A DNA stretch of 64,000 nt. It comes from Rickettsiales bacterium. Its GTDB lineage: Bacteria; Pseudomonadota; Alphaproteobacteria; Rickettsiales; UBA1997. Under the pieces are notes generated by a model. The model did no database searches. It was not told where the DNA came from and was given only the letters and a program-made list of their open reading frames with translations. The position numbers and the translations under genes were made by a program. Below, piece by piece: positions 2,338 to 33,811 of this stretch. Location of the stretch: contig JAGWYT010000001.1 of the NCBI GenBank assembly GCA_018969185.1, forward strand, positions 13,959 to 77,958, written 5' to 3'. Every line of letters starts with the position of its first letter. Within the stretch, counting starts at the first letter, position 1.

Positions 2338-3381
2338 ATGAAAATTCTGCAAACAATATTTTTCTCATTTCTTTTATTATTTTCTTTAAACGCCAATGCT
2401 AAGAACATTGCTGTAATTGCAACAGGTGGAACAATAGCGGGAGTTGGAGGTTCGGCAACAGACGCTAAATATTCGCCATCAACAATTGATATTGATAAAA
2501 TAATTAAAAGCGTCACAGGAATTACTGACCTCGCAGAAATCAAGGCGGAGCAATTGCTGCAAGTAAGAAGCCAAGATATGAAGCAAGAATATTGGCTAAA
2601 AATTGCAAATAGAGTTAATGAAGTTTTGTCACAAGAATATACAGATGGTGTGGTGATAACTCACGGAACGGACACGTTAGAAGAAACCGCTTATTTTCTA
2701 AATTTAGTGGTGAAGAGTAATAAGCCCGTGGTGCTTGTTGGATCAATGCGTCCTTCAACTTCTTTGAGTGCAGATGGAAATTTAAATTTATTTAATGCCG
2801 TTGCTTTGGCAAGTTCTGATGAGGCGTATGCTAAAGGAGCCTTAGTATTGCTTAATGACAATATTTATGCTGCAAGAGATGTAACTAAAACACATACAAC
2901 TAATGTTGCTTCTTTTTCTTCTCCAAACGCGGGACCAATTGGGCAGGTTCATTATGGCAAAGTAAAAATTTATTATGAACCTTTAAGAAAACACACGGCG
3001 AGAACAATCTTTGATGTCAAAAAATTGCAAGAATTACCAAAGGTTGAAATAGCATATGTTTACGCAGGTCAAGATGCTAAAATTATTGATGATTTAGTAA
3101 ATTCAGGAACAAAAGCAATTGTCACCGCGGGAGTTGGTGATGGCAATGTTAGTGAAGAAGTAGAGCAATCTTTAATAAAAGCAAGTAAGCAGGGCGTTTT
3201 GATTGTTAGAAGTTCAAGACTTAACGGTGTTGTTATTCCTGATTCAGAAATTAATGATAGCGAGCTTGGTTTCGTTTCTGCTGATAATTTAAGTCCGCAA
3301 AAGGCAAGAATATTAACAATGCTGGCTTTAACAAAAACCTCGGATGTTAAAGAAATAAGAAAGATGTTTGCGGTTTATTAA
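2338..3381 (+). CDS. ansB: Periplasmic type II L-asparaginase
   Basis: 347 aa. Signal peptide MKILQTIFFSFLLLFSLNANA. Catalytic motifs VIATGGTIAG and ITHGTDTLEETA. Confidence 0.9.
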   Translation: MKILQTIFFSFLLLFSLNANAKNIAVIATGGTIAGVGGSATDAKYSPSTIDIDKIIKSVTGITDLAEIKAEQLLQVRSQDMKQEYWLKIANRVNEVLSQEYTDGVVITHGTDTLEETAYFLNLVVKSNKPVVLVGSMRPSTSLSADGNLNLFNAVALASSDEAYAKGALVLLNDNIYAARDVTKTHTTNVASFSSPNAGPIGQVHYGKVKIYYEPLRKHTARTIFDVKKLQELPKVEIAYVYAGQDAKIIDDLVNSGTKAIVTAGVGDGNVSEEVEQSLIKASKQGVLIVRSSRLNGVVIPDSEINDSELGFVSADNLSPQKARILTMLALTKTSDVKEIRKMFAVY

Positions 3382-3528
3382 GCCTCCTTTGAAAAAGGAG
3401 GTGTAAGCTTTTGCTTTAGCAAAAGCTGACGGAGGATTTAGATTTAATAATTAATTTAATTAAATCACCCGTCTTGAATTGCTATCGCAATTCAAGCCAC
3501 CCTCTTTTTCAAAGAGGGTTTAAAAACC
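3382..3528. repeat. Palindromic element family B, copy B1 (two hairpin modules)
   Basis: cctcctttgaaaaaggaggtg-[gc hairpin]-cggaggattta ... aatcacccgtcttgaattgctatcgcaattcaagccaccctctttttcaaagagggtttaaaaacc. Begins directly after the ansB stop. Homologous to 49399..49603, and partly to 63538..63630, 27334..27390 and 29489..29553. Confidence 0.8.
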
Positions 3529-5446: not shown

Positions 5447-6454
5447 ATGAAAAATTTTTACAACGGATCTTTTCCGCAAGTTCGTTTAAGAAGGTTAAGA
5501 AAATCAACATGGATGCGTGAATTGGTTGCCCAAAATTCACTAAGATCCAGTGATTTGATTTTGCCGCTTTTTGTTGTTGAAGGAAAAAATATTGAGCAAA
5601 AAATTGATCACTTACCCGGAGTTTCAAGATTTTCAATTGATCTAATAGTTAAAAAAGCCAAAGAGGCAAATTCTCTTGGAATTCCTGCAATTATGCTATT
5701 TCCAAGCGTTGAACAAAAATTAAAAACTGCTGATGGCAAAGAAGCATTTAATGAAAATAATTTGATTTGCCGTACTATTAAAGCGATAAAAAAACAAGTT
5801 CCAGAAATTGGTGTAATTTGCGATGTGGCGTTGGATCCTTATACAACCCACGGTCATGATGGTGTTATTGATGAAAATGGTGAAGTGTTAAATGATGCAA
5901 CAATTGAAGTGTTGTGCAAACAGGCTTTGGTTCAAGCTCAGGCAGGTTGCGATATCATTGCGCCTTCGGACATGATGGATGGTAGAGTTGCGGTGATTCG
6001 TGATGCTTTAGATGAAAGTGGATTTATTGATGTGGCAATTATGAGCTATGCTGCAAAATATGCTTCGTCATTTTACGGACCCTTCAGACACGCAGTTGGA
6101 TCAGTTTCTAACTTAAAAAAATCTGATAAAAAATCTTATCAAATGGATTTTAGAAATTCTTCTGAGGCAATGCGTGAGATTGCTTTGGATGTTGATGAAG
6201 GTGCAGATATGGTGATTATAAAACCCGGCATGCCATATCTTGATGTGGTAAAAGAAGCAGCGCAAAATTTTTCTCTACCAATAATTTCTTATCAAGTTAG
6301 TGGAGAATATGCGATGTTAAAGCATGCAGCAAATAAAGATGCTTTTGATTTTGAAGCGGCTTTATTTGAAAGTTTAATTTCTTTTAAAAGGGCGGGAGCC
6401 ACCGCCATCATTACTTACGGCGCAATTGAGATTGCTAAGAGATTTAAAAATTAG
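5447..6454 (+). CDS. hemB: Porphobilinogen synthase (delta-aminolevulinate dehydratase)
   Basis: Track ORF starts at 5393 with a non-ATG codon. The ATG at 5447 (MKNFYNGSFPQVRLRRLRKSTWMRELV) fits HemB N-termini. Asp-rich metal site DVALDPYTTHGHDG, Schiff-base region VIIKPGMPYLD, YQVSGEYAM. Confidence 0.9.
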   Translation: MKNFYNGSFPQVRLRRLRKSTWMRELVAQNSLRSSDLILPLFVVEGKNIEQKIDHLPGVSRFSIDLIVKKAKEANSLGIPAIMLFPSVEQKLKTADGKEAFNENNLICRTIKAIKKQVPEIGVICDVALDPYTTHGHDGVIDENGEVLNDATIEVLCKQALVQAQAGCDIIAPSDMMDGRVAVIRDALDESGFIDVAIMSYAAKYASSFYGPFRHAVGSVSNLKKSDKKSYQMDFRNSSEAMREIALDVDEGADMVIIKPGMPYLDVVKEAAQNFSLPIISYQVSGEYAMLKHAANKDAFDFEAALFESLISFKRAGATAIITYGAIEIAKRFKN

Positions 6455-7141: not shown

Positions 7142-8542
7142 ATGTTTAAAATTGCAATTATTGGCAGACCAAATGTAGGAAAATCAACGCTTTTCAATAA
7201 GCTTGTTGGTAAGAGCTACGCGATTACTGATAACATTCCCGGAGTAACTCGAGATAGAAAAGAAGCGCGTGCCAGTTTGGGGCCAATGAAATTTATTGCA
7301 ATTGACACTGCAGGTCTTGAAAGTGAGGCGGATAAATTATCCTTAGAAAAAAGAATGTTTGAGCAAGCAGAAATTGCCGTGATGGATGCTGATGTTTGTT
7401 TATTTGTGGTTGATGGCAGGAATGGCGTGGTTGCAAAAGATTCGACATTAGCTGATATGATGCGCAAAAAAGGTAAAAAAATAATTTTGGTTGCGAATAA
7501 ATTGGAAGGAAAAAACGAAGAAAATTTAGGTAAAGAATATTATCGTTTAGGTTTTGGAGCGCCGGTTGCAGTGTCTGCAGAGCATAATGAGGGTTTTGGT
7601 GATTTATATGAAAAAATTGAGCCAATCTATGAAGAATATCAAAAGAATTTTTCTGAAATAGAAATTGATAAAAGTGACGATAAGGCTTTGTTACAAGTGG
7701 CAATTGTTGGTAAACCAAATGCTGGAAAATCAACTTTCTTAAATAAAATTCTTAATCAAGAAAGATTAATTACGGGCCCAGAAGCTGGAATTACACGTGA
7801 TTCAATTGCCATTGATCATGAATTTAAGGGACAGAAAATTCGCTTTATTGATACTGCAGGAATTAGAAGAAAAACAAATATTAAAGGTAAGTTAGAACAG
7901 CTTTCAGCGGTTGATAGTTTCCGTGCAATTAATTTTGCGCAAGTGGTGATTTTGATGATTGATGCAAACTCGCTCTTAGATCATCAAGATGTGGCGCTGG
8001 CTGGTCAGATTTTGCAGGAAGGACGTGGTTTAATTTTTGTGATTAATAAGATTGATACGGTTAAAGGCGATAAGGAAGTTTTCTTACGTGAAGTGCGTAA
8101 ACAATTACAATCATTATTTAAAGAAGTTGATGGAGTGCCAATTTTAGGGGTTTCAGCGCAAAATGGTTATAATGTAGAAAAAACTTTGGATTATGCGCTA
8201 AAAGTTTATGAACAATGGCAAGTTTATATTCCAACTTCAAAATTAAATGAGTGGTTAAGAATGGCGGATAGAGCACATCCTCCTAAATTATTTAAAGGCA
8301 AAGAAACTAAGTTGAAATATGTAACGCAAATAAAAAGACGTCCACCAACTTTTGCGGTATTTACTAATTATCCAAAAGCGGTTGAAGGTTCTTATCAGCG
8401 TTATTTAGTTAATTCTTTGCGTGAAACTTTTGGATTGAACCTAACGCCAGTGCGCTTGGTTCTAAGAAAAACTGAAAATCCTTTTGAAGGTAAGAAAGAA
8501 AAGATTTTCTCTAAAAAAACTCATGTGAAGAAAAAGAAGTAA
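7142..8542 (+). CDS. der: Ribosome-biogenesis GTPase Der (EngA)
   Basis: 466 aa. Tandem GTPase domains (GRPNVGKST...DTAG; GKPNAGKST...DTAG...NKID) and a KH-like C-terminal domain. Confidence 0.95.
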   Translation: MFKIAIIGRPNVGKSTLFNKLVGKSYAITDNIPGVTRDRKEARASLGPMKFIAIDTAGLESEADKLSLEKRMFEQAEIAVMDADVCLFVVDGRNGVVAKDSTLADMMRKKGKKIILVANKLEGKNEENLGKEYYRLGFGAPVAVSAEHNEGFGDLYEKIEPIYEEYQKNFSEIEIDKSDDKALLQVAIVGKPNAGKSTFLNKILNQERLITGPEAGITRDSIAIDHEFKGQKIRFIDTAGIRRKTNIKGKLEQLSAVDSFRAINFAQVVILMIDANSLLDHQDVALAGQILQEGRGLIFVINKIDTVKGDKEVFLREVRKQLQSLFKEVDGVPILGVSAQNGYNVEKTLDYALKVYEQWQVYIPTSKLNEWLRMADRAHPPKLFKGKETKLKYVTQIKRRPPTFAVFTNYPKAVEGSYQRYLVNSLRETFGLNLTPVRLVLRKTENPFEGKKEKIFSKKTHVKKKK

Positions 8543-8543
8543 A

Positions 8544-8658
8544 TCTTATCCGCTGGTTCCTGCGAAGTCGAAACCAAGGATAAGATTATTGTAAAGCTTC
8601 TCTTGGTTTCGATACTTCGTCAAGCTCAGTACGGCGCAGCTCAACCAGCGAGAAGCTT
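8544..8658. repeat. Palindromic element family A, copy A1
   Basis: atcttatccgctggtt..gaagtcgaaaccaaggataagat + cttctcttggtttcga...ctcaaccagcgagaag. Starts 2 nt after the der stop. Homologous to 12010..12100, 52675..52764 and 60539..60632. Confidence 0.85.
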
Positions 8659-9639: not shown

Positions 9640-9734
9640 CCAATATTGTCATCCCAATAGGGAGGGTTACTGGTAAAGGTTTGACTTATGCGTAAGTATT
9701 TAATTTATTAATATTTTTTACTTTTTATTTACGT

Positions 9735-9846
9735 GTCATCCTGAGCCTTAGAATTTGTTTTACAAATTCTTGGCGAAGGATCTCATCAAAACGCACGAGA
9801 TCTTTCGCTAAGATTTTCTAAAAGAAAATCTATAGCTCAAGATGAC
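9735..9846. repeat. Palindromic element family C, copy C1
   Basis: gtcatcctgagcc-[hairpin]-ggcgaaggatctc...gagatctttcg-[hairpin]-ctcaagatgac. Framework identical to 38868..38979. Ends 5 nt from the stop of the kinase gene at 9852. Confidence 0.8.
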
Positions 9847-9851
9847 ATCAC

Positions 9852-11858
9852 TTAACAACTTTTAGAAGAAATTTCCTTCAAATTTCCTGGTAGAGAAATA
9901 AACACATTACTTCTATCACTTGCCATGCTGCTCCAGAATTCAAGGATTCGGTAGAGATCATCATAATCATTTCCTTTAATAAAATAATCATCAAATCCTG
10001 CACTAAGTATTTTATAAATTTGTAGTTTGTGATTATCTCCGGTAATTGCAATTACTGGTGTGCGGCTGGAATTATTATTTTTTTGAAATTTTCTGATTTC
10101 TTCAACAGCTTCAATGCCGTCCATTTTTGGCATTTCGATATCCATCAAAATTAAATCATAATTATTTTTTTTGATTAGACCAATTGCTTCTGAACCGTCT
10201 CTTGCCTTGTCAATTTCAACTTGATATTTAGACAAATATTTCGCGGTAATAATTAAATTACTTTCTTCATCATCAGCAATTAAAACTCTTTTCTTGCGTA
10301 AATATTCTTGATTTCTTGCTTCTTTAACTTCGTCTTTAAGCTTTACCATTCCCCATTTTGAAACCATTTTCAGTAATATTGCTGGAGAAGATGATTTAGA
10401 AACATAACCATTAAAACCAGAGGTTTTTAAATCACTAATTACTAAATCAAGATTCTTTGATGAATAAGCAAGAACAGGAGTGCCATTGTTAAATTTCCTA
10501 ATTTCTTTTGTGGTTAAAATGCCATCAATTTCAGGCATTTCTATATCCATCAATATTACATTATATCTGTTATTCTTAATCAAATCTAAAGCTTCATTGC
10601 AATTTGTTGCTTTGTCACATCTTGTGGCATATAGGCTTTTTTCTAAGAATGATTTTGTAACCATCAAATTAGTTTCCTGATCATCAACTATTAAAATCTT
10701 ATTTTCAGATTCATTTTGATAAGTTTCATTTGTAACTTTTGGAAATTCTAAAACAAATTCCGTAAATTTCCCTTCTTCGGAATTGCACAAGATATCGCCA
10801 TTAATTGAGCGCATTGATCTTTTGCAAAATGTTAAACCAAGACCAGTGCCGCCTTTTTTCCCTGAAGTTGAAAATGCGCCAAATATTCCATCTAACTTAC
10901 TTGCGGGAATTCCTGGACCATTATCACGAAAATAAATTCTGTTAAATTGATCTTTACCATCTTCAATTCTGATGATGATGTGCAAGTCAGGGGTTGAAGA
11001 TGCGTAATATAGAGAATTCTTCAATAAATTGAAAAATACGTAAATTAAAGAATTTTCATTACATCTAATTTTAAAATCATGTTCTCTTTCGGCGTTAACA
11101 GTAATTTTCGCTTTTTCATTATCTTTAAATGCATATTCATCGATAACTTTCTTGATAATTGTTGTTGCAGGAACAACATGTAAATTGCCTACAATGGCAG
11201 ATTTGCCACTAATATTATTTAAAATAATATCTATAATGGCATTGCCTCTGGTGGCTGATCTATCAGCTAAATCAAGCGATGAGATAATATCTTGAAAATC
11301 CTGTTTGGTTAGTGGAGTTATTTTTTCTGCAGCGCCATTACAGAATCTTTCTTGTTGATGAGCAGCAGATAATCTTTCTTTAACTAACTTAGTTGATTGT
11401 CTAACGTTACTTAATGGATTTCTCATTTCATGAGCAATTGAGCCGCTTAAGCTGATGTAATTTTGTCTTATTTCAAATTCTTCTAAGGCTTTGGTCAAAA
11501 TTGCTTTGGTATTTTCAAAATCCCAAGGTTTTGTTAAGTAGGCAAAAACATTACCCTTATTTATAGCTTCAATATTATTTTCAAGGCTGGCGTAAGCAGT
11601 TGTAAGAATTCTAACTATATTACGATTTTTTTCTTTGACTAAAGCAAGCAAATCAACGCCGCTGGCTGTTGGCATTTTTTGATCTGTAACTACAACGGCG
11701 ATTTCTTCAGGTTTTTCATCAATAATTCTTAAAATTTCACTTGGATCACTTGTAGCAATAACTTTAAAAAATTGACCAAATAACTTGTCGAAATATTTAA
11801 CCGAGTTTTCTTCGTCGTCTAAAAATAATATGTAAAATTTTGATCTGATATTATCCAT
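9852..11858 (-). CDS. Hybrid signalling protein: receiver - histidine kinase - receiver - receiver
   Basis: Start taken at the ATG at 11858 (MDNIRSKFYILFLDDEE). REC1 is of the TDQKMP...RILTTAY...TKPWD type. H-box SIAHEMRNPL. HATPase boxes LLKNSLYYA, DNGPGI, GGTGLGL. Two further RECs (ILMDIEMPEIDG; ILMDIEMPKMDG). Confidence 0.85.
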   Translation of the reverse strand: MDNIRSKFYILFLDDEENSVKYFDKLFGQFFKVIATSDPSEILRIIDEKPEEIAVVVTDQKMPTASGVDLLALVKEKNRNIVRILTTAYASLENNIEAINKGNVFAYLTKPWDFENTKAILTKALEEFEIRQNYISLSGSIAHEMRNPLSNVRQSTKLVKERLSAAHQQERFCNGAAEKITPLTKQDFQDIISSLDLADRSATRGNAIIDIILNNISGKSAIVGNLHVVPATTIIKKVIDEYAFKDNEKAKITVNAEREHDFKIRCNENSLIYVFFNLLKNSLYYASSTPDLHIIIRIEDGKDQFNRIYFRDNGPGIPASKLDGIFGAFSTSGKKGGTGLGLTFCKRSMRSINGDILCNSEEGKFTEFVLEFPKVTNETYQNESENKILIVDDQETNLMVTKSFLEKSLYATRCDKATNCNEALDLIKNNRYNVILMDIEMPEIDGILTTKEIRKFNNGTPVLAYSSKNLDLVISDLKTSGFNGYVSKSSSPAILLKMVSKWGMVKLKDEVKEARNQEYLRKKRVLIADDEESNLIITAKYLSKYQVEIDKARDGSEAIGLIKKNNYDLILMDIEMPKMDGIEAVEEIRKFQKNNNSSRTPVIAITGDNHKLQIYKILSAGFDDYFIKGNDYDDLYRILEFWSSMASDRSNVFISLPGNLKEISSKSC

Positions 11859-12009
11859 TTTTTGTGGTTTTAACAAAACTTTTAAATATAGGGACAATCA
11901 GGACAGCATATTAATAAGCCTTATGCAATGATAAGTAATTGCCAATGACATTGAATTTCTACATTGCTTCAAAATTAAACAGGAGCTGAAGCTCTGACTA
12001 CTAGAAACA

Positions 12010-12100
12010 ATCTTATCCGCTGGTTGAGCTTGTGACAAACCAAGGATAAGATTGTAATCAAAACCTTCTCTTGTTTTCAACAAGCTCAACCAGCGAGAAG
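12010..12100. repeat. Palindromic element family A, copy A2 (diverged)
   Basis: atcttatccgctggttgagcttgtgacaaaccaaggataagat...cttctcttgttttcaacaagctcaaccagcgagaag, in the divergent intergenic region between the hybrid kinase and the giant exoprotein gene. Confidence 0.8.
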
Positions 12101-12229: not shown

Positions 12230-15200
12230 ATGTTTGCTTCAAGCCTCATCAGGCGTTTTCTCACAATCTTCACGATAATCTCATTAATCATTGAGCAGTT
12301 TCTTTTTGTCTTTTCGTCAAGTGCTATTGCTTCCGATTTGGCAATTACTGTTGATGGTTCAACTGATACGCAAGTTACGCAAACCGCTTCGGGCATAGAT
12401 CAAATCAATATTGCTGCGCCAAATTCTTCAGGTCTTTCTCATAATAAATTTACGGATTATAACGTTAATTCTTCTGGTCAGATCATTAATAATTTTTCTG
12501 GTAGCGCAACTGCTGTCACGGGAACAGCAATTGCTGGTTTGGTTGTGGCAAATCCTAATCTTAGCGCTTCAGGAAGTGCTTCAGTGATTCTAAATGAAGT
12601 TACTTCGGGAAACACTTCGCAACTTCTTGGTTACACAGAAATTGCTGGTACTAAGGCTGATTTAATTTTAGCGAATCCTAATGGAATTGCTTGTTCGGGC
12701 TGTGGATTTATTAACACGGCGAAACTCTTGATGGTGGCTGGAAGCAGTGATTTTGATTCATCAGGCAATCTTGGTTTTAATTTAAAAGAACAAGCTAATC
12801 CAAATTTATATGTGCCATTAATTACAATTGATGGTTTGGGGCTTGATGTTGAAAATGTTAGTGGCACTGAAATTATTGCTTCAAGTGTTAAACTTCTTTC
12901 TTCAATTTATGGAAGTGATGATAATTATGTAATTATAAAGACGGGAGAAGGAAGATATGATTATGATACGAAAGAAATTACAGGCGATAATACAAAAAAT
13001 AATACAGATGCAGTTTTTGCAATTGATGCCTCAGCACTTTCTAAGATTCAGGCTGGTCAGATTTATTTGATTGCAACGAAGGAAGGTGTTGGTGTGAAGA
13101 TGGAAGGTGAGATTCTTGCGTCATCAACTCTCAACATTGATGTTAATGGTGATATTTATTATAATAATATTTCCGCTTCTGATGCTGCAACTATTCAATC
13201 AAGTAGTTCGATTAACTCACTTGATAATGATTCAATCATTTCGTCATCTACCATTAATATTACAGCAAATCAATTTAACAATTTTGGTTTGGTTTCTGCG
13301 AATAATTTGAATGTTGAAAATACTGAAATTCTTGATAATTCAGGAAAATTTAAAGCGTTAAATTTAAATCTTTCCAACATTAATAATATTGATAATTCTG
13401 GCACAATTTATGGAAAGAATTCTTTAGTAATTTCAGGAAAGAATTTAACTAATGAACTTCTCGGAACTATTTATTCGCCAGTTGATTATACAATTACTCT
13501 TACTGGTCTTCTAAGTAATTCTGGTCTAATTACTTCGGGGAATAATTTAACATTAAATTCAAACCAACTAAACAACTCTTCGGAAATTTCGGCACAGAAT
13601 AATCTTACTTTCTCAGTTACAAATTCATTTGAAAATTCAGGAAGTTTAATTGCAACTAAAGATCTAAACTTAACCGCGGAATCACTGAGTAATTCAAATC
13701 AAATAAAATCAGATGGAAGTTCAACATTTAATTTAAGCAGTTTAACCAACAGCTCATCAATTTATTCTGATACTGTTCTTACTTTAAATCTGGCATCAAG
13801 TCTTAACAATTCTGGATCAATTTCTTCACAAAGCGATTTAATAATTACGGGAAGTTCAAGCATTACTAATTCAAACCAAATCCTTTCTAATTCTGATATT
13901 AATATTGTTGGAAATTCATTTACGAATGATGAAGATGCTATTGTTTCATCACTTGTTAAATCTCTAACTCTAACATTAAATGAAACTTTACAAAATTATG
14001 GCGATTTAAATGCAGAAACTGATCTTACTGTTTCTGCCAATTCATTGAATAATTCAGGGGGTATTATTGCTAATAGTTTGGATATTACTTCAACAAATGA
14101 TTTAACAAATAATGGCAAGATTGGTAGTTATAACGATATAAAAATTGCGGCAAAGAACCTTAACAACTCTTCAGAAATTAAAGCTCTTACAACTTCTACA
14201 ATTACTCTAACTGGAAATTTAACTAATTTTGAAGAGGCACTGATTTATTCAATTTCTAATCTTACTTTATCAGCTTCTGGTTATTTGAGTAATTTAGGAG
14301 AAATTTCAACAAGAAATTCAGCAGATCTAACTTTTTCAAACATTACTAATTCAAATAAAATTCTTGCTAATGAGGCTTTAAATATAAAAAGCTCTTCAAT
14401 TGATAATAATAGTTCAGATTCAGTTCTGGCTTCGGTTAATCAAGGTGTGAATTTAAATATTACAGATTTTTTAATAAACTCTGGAAATATTTTTGCTAAA
14501 ACAAATTTGACTTTAGGAAACGAGACTGAATTAAATTCAATTGATAATTCTGGTTCAATTACTTTCAATAAACTCATCAATACAAATTCAGAGTTAAAAG
14601 TTAGAGATTTTATAAACTCTGGCGAGTTCTCATCAAATTCAGCAATAGATGATCTTACAATCACCTCATCAAACAGATTCACGAATAGTGGAAATTTATT
14701 TTCTGGTAAAAATTCTACGATTAATTTAAGTGGAAGTTTTGACAATTCAGGAAATTTATCTGCAACAAATAATTTAACCATCGGTTCATCATCTTCATTA
14801 AATAATCTGATTAATTCTGGTCAAATTGGTGCTGTAAATAATTTAATAATTAACAGCAATTCAGACATTAATAATTCAGGATATATTTTAGCTGATAATA
14901 TAGTAAATATTTCGGCGATTAACATTAATAATGAATTAGATGCAGTGATCTCTTCGCTTGGCGCTGCAACAACTTTAACAACTTCTTCTGATGTTAAGAA
15001 TTATGGTGAAATTTCTTCAAAAACTGCTCTTGTTCTAAATGCCACAAATCTCTTCAATTATTCCAACATAATTGCAGCAACAGCTTTAAATGTTAGTGGT
15101 TTTGGACTAATCAATAATTCAGGTAATTTACAAAGCTCTACTGATACAACTTTAACGTCAAATTCTTTAATAAATTCGGGAACAATTTACAGTAAAGGTG

Positions 15201-18200
15201 ACTCAACAATTTCTAGTTTATCTGATATAACCAACTCAAATAATATCTATGCTGAAGGTAATTTAACAACAACTTCAAATAATTTAATCAATCAAACTGG
15301 CGCAGTTTTATCAGCAAAAGAAAATCTTACAGCTAATGCAACAAGTGACATCACAAACTCTGGCTCAATTGCGGCAGTTAATGATTTAGAGGTGACTGCT
15401 AATAATTTTACTAATTCAAATTTGGTTCAAAGTGGCAATAATAGTAATTTCACTTTAACTTCAAATTTAACTAATAATTCAGGCGCAACAATTTATTCAG
15501 GCAATAATATAGATATTAACAAAGCAGCTGGCTCATCATTATCAATTAATAATTCTGGTTCAATTTCAGCGGTTGGCAAATCAGATTTTACGGTTTCATC
15601 ATTTACAAATTCCAACAGTGTTTTAGCAAATAATGATGTCACTATTAATGCTGATTCATTTAATAATGACAATGTTAATTCAGTTTTAGCATCAATTAAT
15701 TGGGCGTTAAAATTGAATTTGACTAAATCTTTAGCAAATTCAGGAACAATTTTTGCTAAAACTGATCTGACCCTTGCAGATGGTGTGATGCTTGATTCAA
15801 TTGATAATTCAGGCTCAATTTCTTTTAATAAATTAGCTAATATTGATAATAAAATTCAAACTAAAGAATTCATTAATTCAGGAATTTTTTCTTCTAATAG
15901 TTCAGGAAATAATTTAGAAATTACTGTTCAAGATAAGTTTGACAATTCAGGAAGTCTTTTTGCGCAGGGAAGTTTTACAATCAATTCAAATGCTTTAACA
16001 AGCACAATAAGCAAAAATTCTGGCACTATCAATTCCGCAACAAGTTTAACTTTTAATTCTAATAATCTTGAAAATTCTGGAGAGATTTCTGCGCTTACAA
16101 ATTTAACAATTGCAGATAATTCAACTGTTACTAACTTAGGTAAAATTCTTGCTAATGGTGTTGTAACTATTAATGCAGAAAATTTAGAAAATGGCTCAGA
16201 GTATAATTCAAACGCCACAATTTCTTCGCTTACAAATTCTTTAACTTTAACAATTTCCAACCAGTTAGAAAATTTTGGTCAGTTAAGCTCAAGTTCTGAT
16301 TTAACGATTGCGGCTGCTGATGTTAATAATAGTGGTGATGTTCTTTCTTCTACAAAACTTAGCCAAACAGTTACTAATTCAATTATTAATTCTGGAACTT
16401 TCCAAAGTGTTAAAGATTTAACATTAAACGCTGCGTCACTCACAAATTCTGGTGTAATTAAATCTTTCGGAAATTCTGATGAGACTTCAACAAACTCAAG
16501 TAATATCAATGTTGCAGCAATTACCAATGAAGCTGATGCTTTGATATTTTCAAATCTTTCAATGGTGATTGCAGATAATATTTCACTTACCAATAAAGGA
16601 ACAATTCTTTCTAATTCTAAACTTGATGTAACTTCGGGAGATGTTGATAATAGCGGCTCAATCTTAGCAAATTCTGATTTAGATTTAACGGTTAGTTCGT
16701 CTTTGACTAATAGAACTTCTGGAGAATTAAGTGCGCTTGGCAATTTAACTATTGATGGTACTAGTTCAAAAGTTTTAAATTATAATCAAATTTATAGTAA
16801 TGGTAATCTTGCAATTACAACAACAGAGCTGGTTAATGAGGATAATGGTAAAAGCAAAATTCAATCTAATGGAACTCTGAATTTAAATTTAACAACTCTT
16901 ACTAATTACGAAGAAATAATTGCTGGCAAAACTTTTACAATTACAGCAAGTGGCAATGTTTCAAATTATTCACTTTTACAATCTGATGAAGATTTAATTT
17001 TAACGGCGGCAAGTTTTACCAATTTAGCAAATTCATTAATTTTAGCGCAAAATGATCTAACAATTGCGGCTTCAACAATAACTAACAGCAATACCAAACC
17101 ATCAGATAAAAATTCTACTACAAGCGGAATTATTTCTAGTAGTGGCGGCATTAATCTAAACGCCAATAGCATTTACAATAATGCTGGTTTAATCAAAGGA
17201 AAATCAATTGCTCTAAATAAGCTTTCTTCATTATCTTCGTCGTTATATAAGAAGGTTTTTGACGCGAATACGATGAATTACAGTTATGCTTCTGACGCAC
17301 TAACTTTCAATAACACTTCTGGTAAATTAATTGCTGATGCAGAAGTTAAATTAGATTTTGGTAATATTGATTACACAATTACTGGTGAAGTTACTGCAAG
17401 AAATATTGATCTTACAGCTAATAATATTAACAACCAAGGTAATGTGGTTGCCAGTGAATTTATTAAGTTAAATGCCACGGGAAATAGTGGAGCTTCGGGA
17501 AGCGGCAATATTACTAATGGTTTTGCAAGTGGTGATAATTCCAATGTTCAATTAGCAGCGGGAAGCTATATTGATTTTGTTGCAAAGAATAACATTCTTA
17601 ATTACGCCACAATATCAGCAACAACCAATTTAACACTTAGCGCAACAAATGGTGATATTAAAAATTATTCGTCAGGTAAAATTATTGGTGGTAATGGAGT
17701 TGCAACAATAAACGCCACAAACGGAACTTTTTATAATTATAATAGCACCAATTCTTCTGGTCAAGTAACGGCATCATCACTTTTCATTTCAAATAATAAT
17801 GCAATTTTTAATGTTAAGGATTTGAGTAATAGTGGTGAAATTTCTGTGGCGCAAGATTTAACGGCGAATGTGAGTAATAATTTTAGTAATAATAGTTCAG
17901 CGCTTATATGGTCTGGCAATAATATAATATTTAATGTTGCGAATAGTTTTGTTAATTCTCAGGCTGAAATTTATGCCAATAATAATTTGACGATTCAGAA
18001 AAATTCATCAACCACCTCATCTTTAAATAAAGTTAATTCTGTAACCAATTATTCTGGTGTAATAAAAACTTATTTGGGTGATTTAACAATTAAGGCTATT
18101 GATTTAAAAAATCAGAGATCAGTTAATCTAACAGATTCAACAGAAACTAATTTATTGGTTATACCTGAAGGTTACACTTATTCTTATGGTTATTGCCAAT

Positions 18201-21200
18201 ATTGTAGTAAGTTTCTAAATACTGATACTCAGAGTTGGACATATTTAGGAAATTGGCGTGATGGAAATTTCGGCGGAGCTTACCATGAAGCCTATAGTAC
18301 AACACAAGGATCGATCATACAAAATACTACTGCATCAGAAATTTTCTCAGGAAGAACTCTTAATTTGGAAGCAACTAATATAACTAATGAAGCTTCTAAT
18401 ATATTTAGCGTTTCTTCGATGTTTATTAACGCACAAACTCTCAGCAATAATTCATTTCAATATAGTAAAGATGTTTATTATGAGCCAATTAATGCCTATG
18501 GAAGAATGCAATATCATTATGGTTTTTCTACTCCACAAACTTTATTGGCTTTAATTAAAAGTGGTAGTTCCACACCAATCACAAATCTCACATCGCTTAG
18601 TAATGTAACTATTGCTCCGAATGTAGTTGAAGGGGCTTCAACACAATATTTAACTACTAGCAGTCTATCAACTAATATCGGTCAAGATACGACACTTGGT
18701 GGTGGAAGCATTACTAAATCCACCACAGTAAACAACATAGACATTTACACACTTGCAGAAAGCGGTGTTGTTGATGTTGATTTATCTTCAATTACCAATG
18801 CTATAGGAAATAATAATGGCAAAAAAGAAGCTTCAAAACAAGATGTTTCTGACAGTAATTCAGGAAGAAAAGTTGAAGATGCTGTTAAAGAACAAAGCGT
18901 AACGAAAGGTGATGCGTTAAATTTAACATCCACTTCATCAGAAATTGATTCTTCTAGTTCTGATGATGGAGTTGATGCTGTTGATTCTAAAACTGTAACT
19001 AAAAAAGATGTTGATATTACAACTTCCACAATTACCGCTTCAACATCAGATACAATTTTTTCTGGTTCATATAAGATTAATCTTGATGCAGCAGCTACAA
19101 CTCCACTTGTTGAATCAAGAAGTCAATTTACAGATGTGAGCAAATTCTTTGGTTCCTCTTATTACTTTGACCAGCTTGGCTTGAATGGTTCTTCTGTTTT
19201 AGCTGATATTGATCGTCAAACCAGAAATACTAATATTAGAATGCTTGGCGATGCTTTTGTTGAAACCACTCTTATTTTAAATCAGTTACAAAAATTGACG
19301 AATGATTCATTATTTCTATCAAAAACAACAACCGATCCAAATGAGCAAATAAAAGAACTTCTTGATAATGCGGTTAATCAATTTGCGGCTCTTGGTTTAA
19401 ATGCTGAAGATGTTGCAACTAAAGGTCTTACAGCTTCGCAGGCAAATTCACTTACAAAAGATATTGTAACTTTTGAATTGACGAAGGTTAATGGCGTGAA
19501 TGTTTTGGCTCCGAAGATTTATTTAAGCCAAAGCACAAGAAATCGTCTTTTAGGAACTGATGCTGCGCTTGCAACTAACTCAACAATATTTGCTAAAGAT
19601 AATCTTACAATTGATGCTTCAACAGCAGATTTATTAAATACTGGATCAATTATTGCGGGTAATAATTTAACTTTAAATATTGGCAGTTTAAACAGTTCGT
19701 CGGGAGGTTCTGGAAATCTTGGCACCACAGCAATAAACTCACTTGCAAAAATTAAGGCAGGCAATGATTTAACAATTACTGCTAATAATCCGATCACAAC
19801 TTCCTTTGATACAAATTCTTTTGGCATTGCTAATGTAATTCAACCTTTATCAATTCCAACTTCAGGAATTACACTACAAAATACTTATTTAAGTTCAGGT
19901 GGAAAAACTTCACTTTCAGCACTTGGTGATATTTCCATTAAGAATGATGATGCGTTAAAATTAACAACAATTTCTGATATTTTTGCGGCGTCAAATTTAT
20001 CAGTGAATTCAGCTTTAAGTTCTTCATCAAGGATTGCTTCTAAATTTTCGGCATCAGATGTGTTGGCTTTAACTTCAGCTTCTATTTCCTCACCAAAAGA
20101 CGACGCAGCAGCAGCAAGGGCTGCTCTTACTTTTAATGCGGGAAGTGATATTGAAATTACGTCACTTGGCAATATTAATATTGCGAATAATTATACTAAT
20201 TCTGGTGGCAGTATTTTTATGAGTGCGGCAAATAATATTAATAATAGTAATTATACAGTTTATGCCAGTGACAATGTTGTGATGGATGCGAATAATATTA
20301 ATAATATCCATACGGTTGGTAATAATTCAGAAAGTGAGACCAGAATTGAGGCTGGTAATATTGTATCGTTAAATGCGACGAAAGATGCTGATGGTAATGG
20401 CGGCAACATCAATAACATTGGTGCAACAATTAAAGCTGGAAGTTTGGTTTATTTAACTGCAGATAATAACATAACTAATAAAGCTTTAGTTGAATATAAT
20501 ATTAATGGCGCGGTGTCTTACAGCAGCGGTCTTGGGATTAGTCAAACGGCAAATGATTTTACTAATTCAACTTTAGATGATAATGGTGTTGCCGCTGCGG
20601 ATAATAATCTTTTGAGCGCGGGAGGCAATTACATCAGGTCTAATTTGATTTCACAGGGAAATATCATAGCTGGTGACAGTAGCACAGGAACAGTTGGCAA
20701 TGTTGTTATGGTTGCAGGAAATAATTTAAATAATATTGGCTCTAACATTACAGCAACGGGCGATTCTTATCTTGAGGCGACTAATGGCAACATAAACATT
20801 ACCATTGCCCTTTTAAGAGACAGAACTGTTGCAACTTGGGGAAGTAAGAAGAAAGGTGGAATTTCAGTTTCGGATAATACCAGCAACATTCAAAGTAATG
20901 TAAGTGCAGGAACTTTAGGAAGTGGAACTCTTGATGTTCTTGCTGGCATAGATTCTTCATCATTAATTTCCTCAACAAGTGAAGTTGGTAATATTAATAT
21001 TAATGGTTCTAATTTAAGCAGTGCTGATGATTTAACACTCACTGCTCAAAATGATGTTAATATAATTTCTGCACAAGATAAGACTTATAGTTTCAGTGCG
21101 GGAAGGATTGGTAAAGGTAAATCATACTCAAATACATCAAGTTCAACAACTCAAGTTGCAAGTGTTTTAAGTACAACTAATAATGGTGATATTTCAATTA

Positions 21201-29763: not shown

Positions 29764-32337
29764 ATGTCAGAAAATACTAATTATCAAAATATATTAAAAG
29801 AATCCTATTCTAGTTATGATTTAAATGCTAGAAAACAAAGGCTTAGAATAGGTTTGTTCATAGCTTTAGCATTTGTAGCGGCTTTTGGAATTCTGGATTT
29901 CTTTTATTATCGATCTGATTTTATTTTATTAATTACAATTCGATTCGTAACGGAAGTTGTTTTGATAACTCTATTTTTTATCCTTCGCTTAAGTAGTGGT
30001 GAAAGGATAAAAATGTTAGAAAAGATTTGGGCTATTTTTTTATTCATATTTATAGATGTACTCATTTTTTTCACTGAAGGAGCTACATCTTCCTATTATG
30101 CTGGTCTAAACTTGACGGTCGTTGCGATGTCAGTATTGATGTTGTGGACTTTTAAAGAAGCATTATTTGTATGTTTCTCTTTAGTTTTTTTATACATAAT
30201 AACCATAGTTATACATCATAATATAACAAGGGTTGATTATGATTCACGGGTTCTGGTTAACAATATATTTTTCATTATAGGTACAGCAATAATTTGCGTT
30301 ATTGCAAGTTATGTAAATTCAAAAAAACGCTTCCAAGAATTCTGCCTCAATTACGAACTTGAACAAAACAACCAAAAACTTGCAGCGTTAGATAAAATAA
30401 AATCGCAGTTTTTTGCTAATGTTAGCCATGAATTAAGAACTCCTCTGACCTTGATTTTAGCGCCAACGCAAGACGTGTTGCAGGACACTGGCAATAGCAT
30501 TTCGCAAAAAGTTCAATCTTCTTTAGAAGTGATTAATAAAAATGCTTTACGGCTTTTAAAATTGGTTAATGACCTGCTTGATATAACCAAGCTTGAAGAA
30601 GGAAAATCAGATCTAAAATTACAAAAGCTTGAAGTGAATAATTTGGTTGCGGGTCTTTCAGATTCAGTGTCGCACTTGGCTAAATTGAAGGGAGTTAGAA
30701 TAGTTAAAAATATAATGACCAAAGATTTATTCATTGCGGCGGATGTGGATGCAATGGAAAAAATAATTTTAAATCTTCTTGGTAATGCCATTAAATTTAC
30801 TGATAAAGGCGGAGAAATAAAGGTTTCAACCTCTATTCAAGAAAATGACATTGTGATTTCAATTGCAGATGATGGCATTGGAATTAGCTCTGATAATTTG
30901 CCTTATATTTTTGATCGCTTCAAACAAGTTGACAGTTCAAGCACCAGAAAATATCAGGGAACTGGTTTAGGCCTTGCTTTGGTGAAGGAGTTAACCGAAT
31001 TGCAAAAAGGGCAAGTGAGTGTTGAAAGTGTGATAGATAATGGAACTATTTTTAAATTATCTTTCCCAAGATTGACTGAGAAGAATCTTGACGTTGTTGG
31101 TTTATTATCTGAAGAGGAAGATGCTGATATTCTAAAAATGACAAAAATGGCGCGCCGAGTAATGCCAAAAATTGTTGATGAAGAGTCAGATCAAGAGTTT
31201 AGTTTTGTTAATCGTGATGCCAAGACAGTGTTGGTTGCAGAGGATGAGCCTGACATGAGCAGTTATATAACAAATCTTGTCAAAGGCGAAGGTTATAATG
31301 TTATTAAGGCGAAGGACGGCAAGGTGGCGCTTGAACTGGCTAATAGATTTTCTCCTGATTTGATAATACTTGATTTGATGCTTCCTGAAATTGATGGTTT
31401 GTTAATTTGCGAACAGTTGAAATCAGATGATAGAACCAGATTTATCAAGATTATAATGGTGACAGCGCGAAGTGACGAAAAATCAAAATTAACCGCTTTA
31501 AAAAATGGTGTTGATGATTTTGTTAATAAGCCTTTTAGCAGCAGTGAGCTTAAGGCAAGAATAAATAACATCTTAAAATCTGATAGGTTACAAAAAGATA
31601 TGTATCAGCAATTAAGAAAAGCGATGGATCAATTAACTTTGGCACAAAACAGGCTGGTGCGCAGTGAGAAGCTGAATATTATGGGCAGGCTGCCAGAAGA
31701 GATTATGCATGGGGTGAAAAACCCTCTAAATTATATGGTTACTGCGCTTTATTCAATGAAGCTGGATCCAACGGTGAACAGCGATCCAGAGCTAATTAGC
31801 ATTATCAGAGACGTGGAAGATGGGGTAAAAAGGATTGATGACATAGTGTCCGATATTAGGTCTTTTGCTGATTTTAGTGAGATTGACAGAACAAAATTCT
31901 TGATTAAAGATGCGGTTGATGATGCTGTGAAATTTATTAGATATGAATTAAGAAATATAAAAGTTGATTTGGATGTTGATAATAAATTATATGTGATAGC
32001 ATCAAAAAATCACATTACACAGGTACTGATAAATTTAATTAGTAATGCAATTAAAGCCATAATTGCATCTGAAAATAATGTTGGAAAAATTACGATCAGA
32101 TGTAAACATGAGGAAAATAAAGCAGTAGTTACGGTAAGTGATAATGGTATTGGAATTAGAAATGAGGATTTGAAAGTAATTTTTAATCCTTTTTTCACAA
32201 CCAAAGATATTGGATCCGGAATTGGTCTGGGGCTTAATATTAGCTATGTTATAATCAATAATCACAATAGCGAATTAAAAGTTATTAGTGAATTTGGCAA
32301 AGGCAGCAGCTTTTATTTTGACTTACCGATTTGGTGA
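29764..32337 (+). CDS. Membrane sensor with two kinase cores: TM domain - HisKA/HATPase - receiver - second HisKA/HATPase (PhcS-PhcR-like fusion), paralog 1
   Basis: 857 aa. RBS aggaggtgcgATG. About 6 TM helices. H-box 1 FANVSHELRTPL, with N/G boxes LLGNAIKFT, DDGIGI, GTGLGLALV. REC VLVAEDEPDM...IILDLMLPEIDG...NKPF. Second core SEKLNIMGRLPEEIMHGVKNPLNY, LINLISNAIKA, DNGIGI, GSGIGLGL. Confidence 0.9.
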   Translation: MSENTNYQNILKESYSSYDLNARKQRLRIGLFIALAFVAAFGILDFFYYRSDFILLITIRFVTEVVLITLFFILRLSSGERIKMLEKIWAIFLFIFIDVLIFFTEGATSSYYAGLNLTVVAMSVLMLWTFKEALFVCFSLVFLYIITIVIHHNITRVDYDSRVLVNNIFFIIGTAIICVIASYVNSKKRFQEFCLNYELEQNNQKLAALDKIKSQFFANVSHELRTPLTLILAPTQDVLQDTGNSISQKVQSSLEVINKNALRLLKLVNDLLDITKLEEGKSDLKLQKLEVNNLVAGLSDSVSHLAKLKGVRIVKNIMTKDLFIAADVDAMEKIILNLLGNAIKFTDKGGEIKVSTSIQENDIVISIADDGIGISSDNLPYIFDRFKQVDSSSTRKYQGTGLGLALVKELTELQKGQVSVESVIDNGTIFKLSFPRLTEKNLDVVGLLSEEEDADILKMTKMARRVMPKIVDEESDQEFSFVNRDAKTVLVAEDEPDMSSYITNLVKGEGYNVIKAKDGKVALELANRFSPDLIILDLMLPEIDGLLICEQLKSDDRTRFIKIIMVTARSDEKSKLTALKNGVDDFVNKPFSSSELKARINNILKSDRLQKDMYQQLRKAMDQLTLAQNRLVRSEKLNIMGRLPEEIMHGVKNPLNYMVTALYSMKLDPTVNSDPELISIIRDVEDGVKRIDDIVSDIRSFADFSEIDRTKFLIKDAVDDAVKFIRYELRNIKVDLDVDNKLYVIASKNHITQVLINLISNAIKAIIASENNVGKITIRCKHEENKAVVTVSDNGIGIRNEDLKVIFNPFFTTKDIGSGIGLGLNISYVIINNHNSELKVISEFGKGSSFYFDLPIW

Positions 32338-32422: not shown

Positions 32423-33811
32423 ATGGAAAAAGTAAATTTTGTAGATAATGAATTAGTTGTTTTTAAGAATAGTCAAGGTCTGAAGGCTCGCGGTACTCTG
32501 CTCAAATTGTCTCAAAACTATATAGTTTTCGAGGTTTATAATCCATATTCGATAGTTCAGTTAAGTGAGGTTTTAAATGAGTTAACAATTACAAGAGCTG
32601 AGAAGCAGATATACTGTGGTAAAGCAATTGTAACAAATATTGTTAATACTGGGATAATTTTAATTGTTTCAGCAACTCTTTCAGATGTATATTGGAAAAG
32701 CACTGTTGATATTGACTCGCAAGAAGATATTCAAAAGGAAATAAAGTTTCTGATTGATAGTTTTGATTTAACACAAAAGATTAGTCCTGAGTTTAGATTG
32801 AATATTTTATCAATAAGATCATTTCTATCAGATATAAAGAATTGGCTTGAAAAACTAGAACCATCTCTTGAAAAAGCTAATATTGAAATAAGCTCTGATT
32901 TTATGTTAACCAATTTTTCTTCTTTATTTAAGAAAGCTGATCAATTAAGTCATGAATTTCATGATCTATCATTGCAGATTTCCAAGGATGAAATTGATTG
33001 TTATAGAGATTTTACTCAGGGTTTGTTGCATCCTTTCTTTATGTCTTCGCCATTTCCTTACAGGGTTTATTCAAAGCCCTTAGGATACGCCGGTGATTAT
33101 GAAATGATGAGAATGATTCAAAGAGAAAATGCTGAAGGTCCTAATCTTTTTGCAAAGTTTGTTAATGTTTTTTACACAAATATTCCAATTGCAAATTCTG
33201 TAAAAAATAGAACCAATAGATTAGTAGGATTGATTGAGGAAGGTGTTAAACTAGCAGAACAAAAAAACGAAGAATATAATTCCCTCAGTATAGGCTGTGG
33301 TCCAGCTTTGGAAGTAAAGCAATTTATAGAAAATAATTTTCCTAAAACAAAATGTAATTTTAAGCTGTTAGATTTTAATGAAGAGACTATGAATTTTGCG
33401 GTGAATCAAGCAAATAACGTTAAAAAAGATAAATCATGCGAGATTAGTGGTGAACTGAATTCAGTTCATGAACTTTTAAAAAGAAGCATCAACAAAAAAG
33501 AAGAAGAAGAAAGGTATGATTTAGTTTATTGTTCTGGATTATTTGACTATCTATCAGATAGAGTTTGTTCTAAGTTGGTAAAATTATTTTACTCTATGGT
33601 TAAGCCAGGTGGAAAAGTTTTTGTTACTAATATGCATTCTAATAATTACCATCATCATTTAATGGAAATTATATTTGAGTGGTATTTGATTTATAGAGAT
33701 GAAAGAGTTATTGCCGATTTCGCACCTGGTTTAGGAAAACAGAAGATTTATACAGATTCAACTGGAGTTAATTTATGTTTGGAAATTATCAAAGAAACTT
33801 CTGATAAATGA
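32423..33811 (+). CDS. PhcB-like class I SAM-dependent methyltransferase with a long N-terminal non-catalytic region
   Basis: 462 aa. C-terminal MTase motifs LSIGCGPALE (motif I), KLLDFNEE, YDLVYCSGLFDYLSD (motif II), GGKVFVTN (motif III). The first ~90 aa are beta-rich and weakly PilZ-like (KARGTLLKLSQNYIVFEV). The stop overlaps the next kinase start (ATGA at 33808-33811). The PhcB assignment rests on architecture and context, not on a search. Confidence 0.7.
   Translation: MEKVNFVDNELVVFKNSQGLKARGTLLKLSQNYIVFEVYNPYSIVQLSEVLNELTITRAEKQIYCGKAIVTNIVNTGIILIVSATLSDVYWKSTVDIDSQEDIQKEIKFLIDSFDLTQKISPEFRLNILSIRSFLSDIKNWLEKLEPSLEKANIEISSDFMLTNFSSLFKKADQLSHEFHDLSLQISKDEIDCYRDFTQGLLHPFFMSSPFPYRVYSKPLGYAGDYEMMRMIQRENAEGPNLFAKFVNVFYTNIPIANSVKNRTNRLVGLIEEGVKLAEQKNEEYNSLSIGCGPALEVKQFIENNFPKTKCNFKLLDFNEETMNFAVNQANNVKKDKSCEISGELNSVHELLKRSINKKEEEERYDLVYCSGLFDYLSDRVCSKLVKLFYSMVKPGGKVFVTNMHSNNYHHHLMEIIFEWYLIYRDERVIADFAPGLGKQKIYTDSTGVNLCLEIIKETSDK

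Follow-up and report, generated by a model that had tools for sequence, protein, structure and literature searches.

The window is the entire 64,000-nt stretch of DNA analysed here; its GC content is 32.7%. Its RuvB is identical to MBU6338406.1 and its Der to MBU6338369.1, both filed at NCBI under a MAG named Rickettsiales bacterium. The identities of Der, a CobS-like AAA protein, HtpG, RuvA and RuvB are supported by Pfam. Four copies of a palindromic element, which we call family A, are located between genes (Table 1); 4/4 are intergenic and none lies in frame inside a gene. Copy c1 begins 0 nt after the TAA of der (8540-8542) and ends 33 nt before the gene for the CobS-like protein. Copy c3 is 1 nt away from the TAA of htpG (52766-52768, minus strand) and 107 nt ahead of the start of a 133-aa ORF. 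Copy c4 follows the TAG of ruvA (60525-60527) by 11 nt, and ruvB starts at 60665. Thus, c1, c3 and c4 reside in co-directional spacers, adjoin the upstream stop and leave 32-107 nt before the next start. Copy c2 is positioned in a divergent spacer. The flanking genes, a hybrid histidine kinase on the minus strand (9852-11897) and a TpsA/FHA gene on the plus strand (12230-23320), start 112 nt and 129 nt away, respectively. The original prediction had each copy at the 3' end of a housekeeping gene; this is correct for c1, c3 and c4 (0-11 nt after the stops of der, htpG and ruvA), but not for c2.

A family profile matches c1 through c4 with E = 1e-15 to 2e-23 (nhmmer; window plus 14 kb of adjoining contigs from the same organism). 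In the same sequence the next match has E > 2, i.e., there is no fifth copy. The profile search thus recovers exactly the four copies which had been claimed. Their earlier coordinates were nearly exact throughout, except that the 5' end of c1 was 1 nt short (8543, not 8544). The 12-mer GTCGAAACCAAG (≤2 mismatches) occurs 12 times as compared to 3.2 expected occurrences, and the counts of family A motifs in the window exceed those of shuffled sequences. The density in the window is one copy per 16 kb. Logan short-read contigs of the same organism (SRR31802048) break inside c1 and c4 (end of L001, start of L122). Contig breaks inside the elements are independent evidence that they are repeated within the genome. 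In practical terms, short-read assemblies fragment at these elements, and gene callers can yield spurious small ORFs or misread fused ORFs.

Table 1. Positions of repeats, their parts and neighbouring features (window coordinates unless a contig is named)
Feature	Position	Strand	Description
Copy c1	8543-8658	+	116 nt; window reading, alignment, profile search
c1, A	8543-8550		
c1, left arm	8551-8578		X_b (variant CCTGCG)
c1, A' + spacer + B	8579-8601		
c1, right arm	8602-8650		long variant X_L
c1, B'	8651-8658		
Copy c2	12010-12100	+	91 nt
c2, A	12010-12017		
c2, X	12018-12044		
c2, X'	12070-12095		
c2, B'	12096-12100		
Copy c3	52674-52764	-	91 nt; inverted; parts below in plus-strand reading
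c3, B	52674-52680		
c3, X	52681-52707		
c3, X'	52731-52756		
c3, A'	52757-52764		
Copy c4	60539-60632	+	94 nt
c4, A	60539-60546		
c4, X	60547-60573		
c4, X'	60597-60624		variant X_b
c4, B'	60625-60632		
Second palindromic family	9734-9850; 38867-38983		two head-to-head TGTC-tagged units
Third palindromic family	~3380-3520; also L121 start, L123 4039-4200, L115 9645-10000		
Stutter sites in relatives	L111 ~12840-12880; L073 2368-2413; L101 332-355; L104 ~6230-6265; L050/L054		
~37-kb block: TpsA/FHA protein			3696 aa
~37-kb block: FadL			
~37-kb block: hybrid histidine kinases	29764-32337; 33808-36477		paralogous
~37-kb block: RTX protein	40982-47962		2326 aa

All four copies are built according to the same plan, A - X - A' - spacer - B - X' - B', with a spacer of 7-10 nt. 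X is a sequence of 27 nt, CGCTGGTTGAGCGAAGTCGAAACCAAG, and X' is its reverse complement. The X unit has a stem of 4-5 bp, GGTT/AACC, around GAGC-GAAG-TCGA. Specifically, the stem consists of GGTT/AACC, the non-Watson-Crick pairs GA/AG and a single G-C pair; the apex is GAAG and the tail AAG. In 4/4 copies the tags are outermost, i.e., the copies are head-to-head dimers. The outer stems in the window are ATCTTATC(C)/(G)GATAAGAT for A/A' and (AAG)CTTCT(C)/(G)AGAAG(CTT) for B/B'. Compensatory changes which keep the pairing are present in the A stem of c3, ATCTTATTC/GAATAAGAT, and in the B stem of c4, CTTTTC/GAAAAG. Both arms of c2 share a TTGT apex variant. In 78 kb there are no empty A/A' or B/B' palindromes, i.e., palindromes devoid of X.

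RNA folding predicts stable structures for c1 through c4, with z-scores of -3.9 to -11.3 against shuffled sequences. The minimum-free-energy fold of the RNA is uniformly one long hairpin (-37 to -49 kcal/mol); in c3 and c4 this hairpin attains -47 to -49 kcal/mol as RNA and about -31 kcal/mol as DNA. Two separate hairpins add up to -28 to -35 kcal/mol as RNA and -15 to -18 kcal/mol as DNA. The long hairpin is therefore the more stable one in prediction, for RNA as well as for DNA; the two-hairpin fold is the only one which accounts for the covariation of the outer stems, or clamps. Alignment and folding, for which both alternatives were computed, agree with the design initially proposed, i.e., two modules with complementary inner sequences that can form either two hairpins or one long stem.

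When elements of different subfamilies are compared, the 27-nt core is near-invariant and the outer clamps change in a complementary fashion. The A-type clamp pairs are ATCTTATC/GATAAGAT, AATCTTTT/AAAAGATT and TTCTTATC/GATAAGAA; the B-type pairs are CTTCT/AGAAG, AACTTT/AAAGTT and CCCTTCC/GGAAGGG, and the last two of each type occur in combination in the order given. Further clamp pairs are GATC/GATC and ATTTTC/GAAAAT. In an alignment of 23 elements, which represent only about 3-5 independent subfamilies so that counts overstate the number of independent events, 88% of the cells in the two outer helices are paired and 12/15 pairs display double changes. The covariation score of the outer helices is 0.634; shuffles score 0.26 (none of 500 attains the observed value) and slid controls 0.08-0.33. 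The long X:X' helix is 96% paired and mostly invariant. At its apex, column 25/79 (GAAG vs GGAG) changes jointly on both arms; other apex variants are uncompensated between the arms. At one orthologous site shared by 5 species, divergence amounts to 1.5-3% in the X arms, as against 7.1% in the coding flank and 26% in the spacer. The lower divergence of the X arms compared to the coding flank signifies that the core is either constrained or continually homogenised.

Do these properties denote a cis-acting RNA element of the host, i.e., a terminator, an attenuator, an RNase site, a bistable switch or a stabiliser of 3' ends, selected behind particular genes? The folds are very stable, and both are supported, by the covariation of the outer stems and by the co-variation of the arm apices (columns 25/79). 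Likewise, conservation is higher in the X arms than in the coding flanks, and the copies are stop-proximal in 3/3 co-directional spacers. On the other hand, the genes that would be served are unrelated, the family occurs in either orientation with respect to transcription as well as inside ORFs and in a divergent spacer, and another repeat family occupies the same spot in a close relative. Rfam returned 0 matches at gathering threshold in the window, and four element-bearing loci, searched by E-value, yielded only generic miRNA-hairpin matches below threshold. A terminator scan did not call a terminator-like site at any of the copies c1 through c4, and no T run follows B'. Because the hairpins have no U tract, an intrinsic (Rho-independent) terminator is rejected. 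Overall, we regard a selected cis-acting RNA function as unlikely. Any implied strand-specific role lacks support, the orientation versus transcription being mixed across the family. Within the window subfamily, the copies in unidirectional spacers (c1, c3, c4 and one in L123) all have one orientation, which at n = 4 is not significant, and in related subfamilies orientations are mixed; an orientation bias was rejected on these grounds.

The X core is present in nearly identical form in at least seven alphaproteobacterial MAG species from lakes or groundwater and in metagenome contigs. It is identical in 27/27 positions across genomes of 29-43% GC, and the surroundings vary. A pattern scan of species-representative genomes, which is not a census, gave 109 stretches among the matches listed; more than half of these are chance matches in high-GC Actinobacteria and the source genome of the window is not among them. 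True matches among those listed are in lake MAGs of about 40% GC: CAMBES, CAMBFP, CAMBXE, CANNMN, CAIQBQ, JAGWWH and CAYVKI. A metagenome scan revealed a 63-kb contig with four copies and a 3.8-kb contig with two; a 1.4-kb metagenome contig has a copy that is almost the same as the window subtype. One copy, between sodB and hisB, is present in the close relative L123 (29% GC; identities of 92% in Der and 96% in CobS). The family-bearing MAGs share 71% identity in CoaBC and 69% in an M24 peptidase with the window organism and are about as distant from it as the genomes L115-L120, in which 20 kb each contain no family A copy. A contig binned as Moraxellaceae (L083, 1698-4678) carries X units together with related CCC-TGAGC-GCAG-TCGAA-GGG hairpins, which would mean that either the contig is wrongly binned or hairpins of the TGAGC...TCGAA class have a wider range of hosts.

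In relatives family copies are also found in frame inside protein genes. An ABC ATPase contains a copy between its two ATPase domains (L109 1967-2040; L060 344-417). The L060 protein has a second in-frame copy (833-924) inside the second ATPase domain, and the orthologue in L109 is without it. A MiaB-like radical-SAM enzyme (L095 5208-5268) harbours a copy between the UPF0004 and radical-SAM domains, and an acetyl-CoA synthetase (L077 ~5880-5990) a degenerate one. L060 additionally possesses an in-frame repeat of the CGTC type (~600-700) which is missing from L109.

The window has two further palindromic families (Table 1). The units of the second family read TGTC-ATCCTGAGC ... GCGAAGGAT-CTC, with a variable extra hairpin at each apex. 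In the third family, CCTCCTTTGAAAAAGGAGG and CCCTCTTTTTCAAAGAGGG palindromes enclose two CGTC-tagged hairpins, each with a stem of 9 bp and a loop of 4 nt. Both fit the CGTC/TGTC REP definition and have the inner motif GAGC...CGA in common with X. The families replace each other at identical positions. Directly after the same der TAA, family A is found in the window and a CGTC-type palindromic family in L123/L124 (Der 92% identical); this der-cobS repeat comprises two CGTC-tagged hairpins bracketed by CCTCC...GGAGG palindromes, and in L123 it is the third family which directly follows the der stop. Different families behind the same TAA demonstrate that the stop codon is native and that the spot was colonised independently. 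Other palindromes also fill the spacer behind htpG (L119) and the ruvA-ruvB spacer (L115/L118), in the latter case the third family. The only polymorphisms found are the intragenic L060/L109 copy and the replacement of families at the der-cobS spacer. Since no orthologous intergenic pair, empty in one genome and filled in the other, was found, all shared sites being filled, we infer the exact termini and the mobility of the intergenic copies.

A block of about 37 kb (12230-49390; Table 1) is missing from the syntenic der...htpG...ruvAB region of L115/L119. It is followed by a gene for a Xer-like recombinase (49582-50577) which is conserved in relatives. The window further contains a 26-nt, 96% inverted repeat at 23912-24005 (GGGGGCAGGTTCATTATATGACATAT), the arms of which are 42 nt apart, and a 44-nt inverted pair, 25310-25353 with 39641-39684, that contains GGGGTCAAAGC.

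Two variants of the arms recur: X_b, which reads GGTTCCYGCG..., and X_L, which is longer by about 21 nt. The roughly 21 extra nt in the right arm of c1 represent this long variant, which is also present in the relative L123, and not a random insertion. Comparing c1 (8551-8578 / 8602-8650) with L123 (7844-7959), X_b and X_L are swapped between the A- and the B-clamped hairpin, and the clamps keep their positions. This swap suggests that the inverted arms have recombined or undergone conversion. Next to many MAG copies there are stutters, i.e., tandem partial copies of 20-24 nt that consist of the outer stem and the first ~9 nt of X. Stutters are absent at the four window copies. The nested covarying clamps and the modular swapping of arms are unusual; they do not change the category of the element.

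One might ask whether the core serves a host protein at the DNA level, as a binding or structural site presented by hairpin or cruciform loops and recognised by a gyrase or IHF-like protein, a nucleoid protein or a recombinase. Gyrase or IHF-like binding is known at E. coli BIMEs. The invariance of all 27 core positions in varying surroundings would be in line with such a site, the 20-24-nt spaced partial repeats at many MAG copies look like iterated half-sites, and the X apex appears to resemble the very stable d(GCGAAGC) mini-hairpin. No candidate protein is known, however. A frequency of 1 copy per 16 kb and the absence from 20-kb samples of L115-L120 argue against a general chromosomal role, and copies inside ORFs are hard to square with a positional function. 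A DNA-level site of this kind appears extremely unlikely.

Alternatively, the elements could be classical MITEs, i.e., deletion derivatives of an IS with a DDE transposase, in which X and X' are the terminal inverted repeats and which move by cut-and-paste. X and X' do constitute inverted repeats of 27 nt on either side of a short, variable centre, and in L113 a copy of the window subtype (1230-1330) is situated 200 nt from an ORF for an IS5-like DDE transposase (119-1030, minus). Yet reading of the flanks revealed no direct target-site duplication at any of the five window-type copies, c1 through c4 and the copy in L113. X and X' are subterminal, with A and B' extending the conserved element by 8-9 nt at either end; no locus has X and X' bracketing a transposase; and hairpins with X are also seen alone or as tandem stutters. 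The L113 neighbourhood would be accounted for by the known use of REPs as insertion targets by IS (PMC1525189). A MITE origin is consequently rated as very unlikely. In L113, the IS5-like ORF may represent an IS that landed close to a REP; the far end of that contig carries no X.

We consider it probable that the four copies are non-autonomous palindromic repeats of the REP/RPE type in uncultured Rickettsiales-like Alphaproteobacteria, with a likely neutral or mild effect. Each copy is a head-to-head pair of REP-like X units of 27 nt, in which A/A' clamps X and B/B' clamps X' as a short outer stem. The family has probably spread or been reshuffled among short intergenic spacers and, in relatives, also into tolerant loops of protein genes. 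In the window the copies, c2 excepted, adjoin stops, where an insertion spares promoters and ribosome-binding sites. From the stop-proximal placement co-transcription with the flanking genes is to be expected. In the RNA, the two small hairpins would presumably form first during transcription, with the one long hairpin as the alternative. The effect, if any, might be a mild one on the stability of mRNA 3'-ends or on the decoupling of neighbouring genes. The slow evolution of the X arms compared to neighbouring coding DNA would be unusual in purely neutral junk and could reflect a host function.

With low confidence we propose that these repeats are mobilised in trans by an enzyme which recognises the X hairpin on single-stranded DNA, either of the HUH/Y1 type or another one. 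Pfam identified no RAYT/Y1_Tnp, Y1/HUH or DDE transposase in the 37 ORFs of the window and no Y1_Tnp in 10 locus ORFs adjoining elements, both sets coming from fragments of the genomes. The wider idea that the X hairpin is the recognition site of a trans-acting enzyme which mobilises or homogenises CGTC-like REPs/RPEs is improbable in our estimate. Candidate footprints of such an enzyme would be the conservation of the core above that of coding DNA, the arm variants which swap clamps and the terminal stutters of 20-24 nt. If true, this would bear on the question of what moves RPE and CGTC repeats. Some lineages of the clade have X and others lack it, so that the enzyme could be identified by phylogenetic profiling. 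An invariant core, free clamps and patchy presence among lineages together make a clean case for the study of mobilisation by comparative genomics.

How does family A relate to named repeats? The kind of element is ordinary and the sequence family seems new. A blastn search with c4 returned no element match among 72,556 plasmids, a collection in which any available Rickettsia plasmids should be included, and none in phages, and a literature search with exact core strings brought up nothing relevant. The contention that the sequence matches no known family therefore stands with respect to Rfam, plasmids, phages, exact strings in the literature and the definition of CGTC-tagged REPs. By eye, an integron attC site and a hammerhead were also considered and rejected: GTTGAGC fits GTTRRRY, but only as a short match and with the core sites in reversed order, and CUGGUUGA...CGAAAC does not fit CUGANGA.

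REPINs and BIMEs with their RAYT transposases are the GTAG REPs of Pseudomonas and E. coli. Family A shares with them the inverted REP doublet, the one long hairpin, the dispersal in spacers and evolution as a unit. Unlike REPINs and BIMEs it has no GTAG tag, and its halves are not simple inverted copies because the outer stems differ.

CGTC-tagged REPs are mainly alphaproteobacterial repeats and include RPE-4, RPE-6 and the dRS3 of Neisseria (Di Nocera, De Gregorio and Rocco, 2013; PMC3733652). They have an 8-9-bp stem which starts with AT, a 4-5-nt loop and a CCA-like tail, with TGTC and CCTC as tag variants, and are mostly organised as head-to-head dimers which fold separately or as one large stem-loop (PMC3733652). 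They are found <20 bp from the 3' end of the upstream ORF in unidirectional or convergent spacers; some are in frame inside genes, some are embedded in extra palindromes, and they come without a dedicated transposase (PMC3733652). Family A, too, is mainly alphaproteobacterial and made up of head-to-head dimers whose short hairpin units have a G-A-rich loop of 4 nt; the apex GAAG obeys the loop rule. Of the window copies, 3/4 follow a stop by 0-11 nt in unidirectional spacers, and c2 occupies a divergent one. The family also has in-frame intragenic copies and no dedicated transposase. In contrast, the tag is CGCT in nearly all of about 50 arms, with the variants CGCC and TGCT, the Watson-Crick stem has 4-5 bp (GGTT/AACC) and no AT start, and the tail is AAG instead of CCA. 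Tag, stem and tail thus set family A outside the formal definition of CGTC-tagged REPs. A further difference is the additional covarying outer stem of 6-9 bp per unit, which differs between the halves of the dimer.

Rickettsia palindromic elements (RPEs) were reportedly described by Ogata et al. in 2000 and 2002. They are dispersed palindromes with a long stem-loop, located in spacers and in frame within conserved genes (PMC2229807; PMC10969869). Family A differs in its host, an uncultured freshwater or groundwater lineage and not Rickettsia, in that the four window copies are all intergenic, and in being composed of two short REP-like hairpins that have separate outer clamps. The resemblance concerns size, fold, coding capacity and in-frame insertion: family A falls into the size class of about 100-150 nt (window copies 91-116 nt), is predicted to form one long stem-loop, has open reading frames through the element, combines spacer copies with in-frame genic copies in relatives, has no known transposase, and its host belongs to the Rickettsiales sensu NCBI. 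The parallel to RPEs which the original prediction had drawn is borne out by the in-frame copies in relatives, the Rickettsiales host and the stop-proximal placement. RPE-style in-frame repeats thus reach beyond Rickettsia and Wolbachia into a large freshwater and groundwater clade labelled Rickettsiales.
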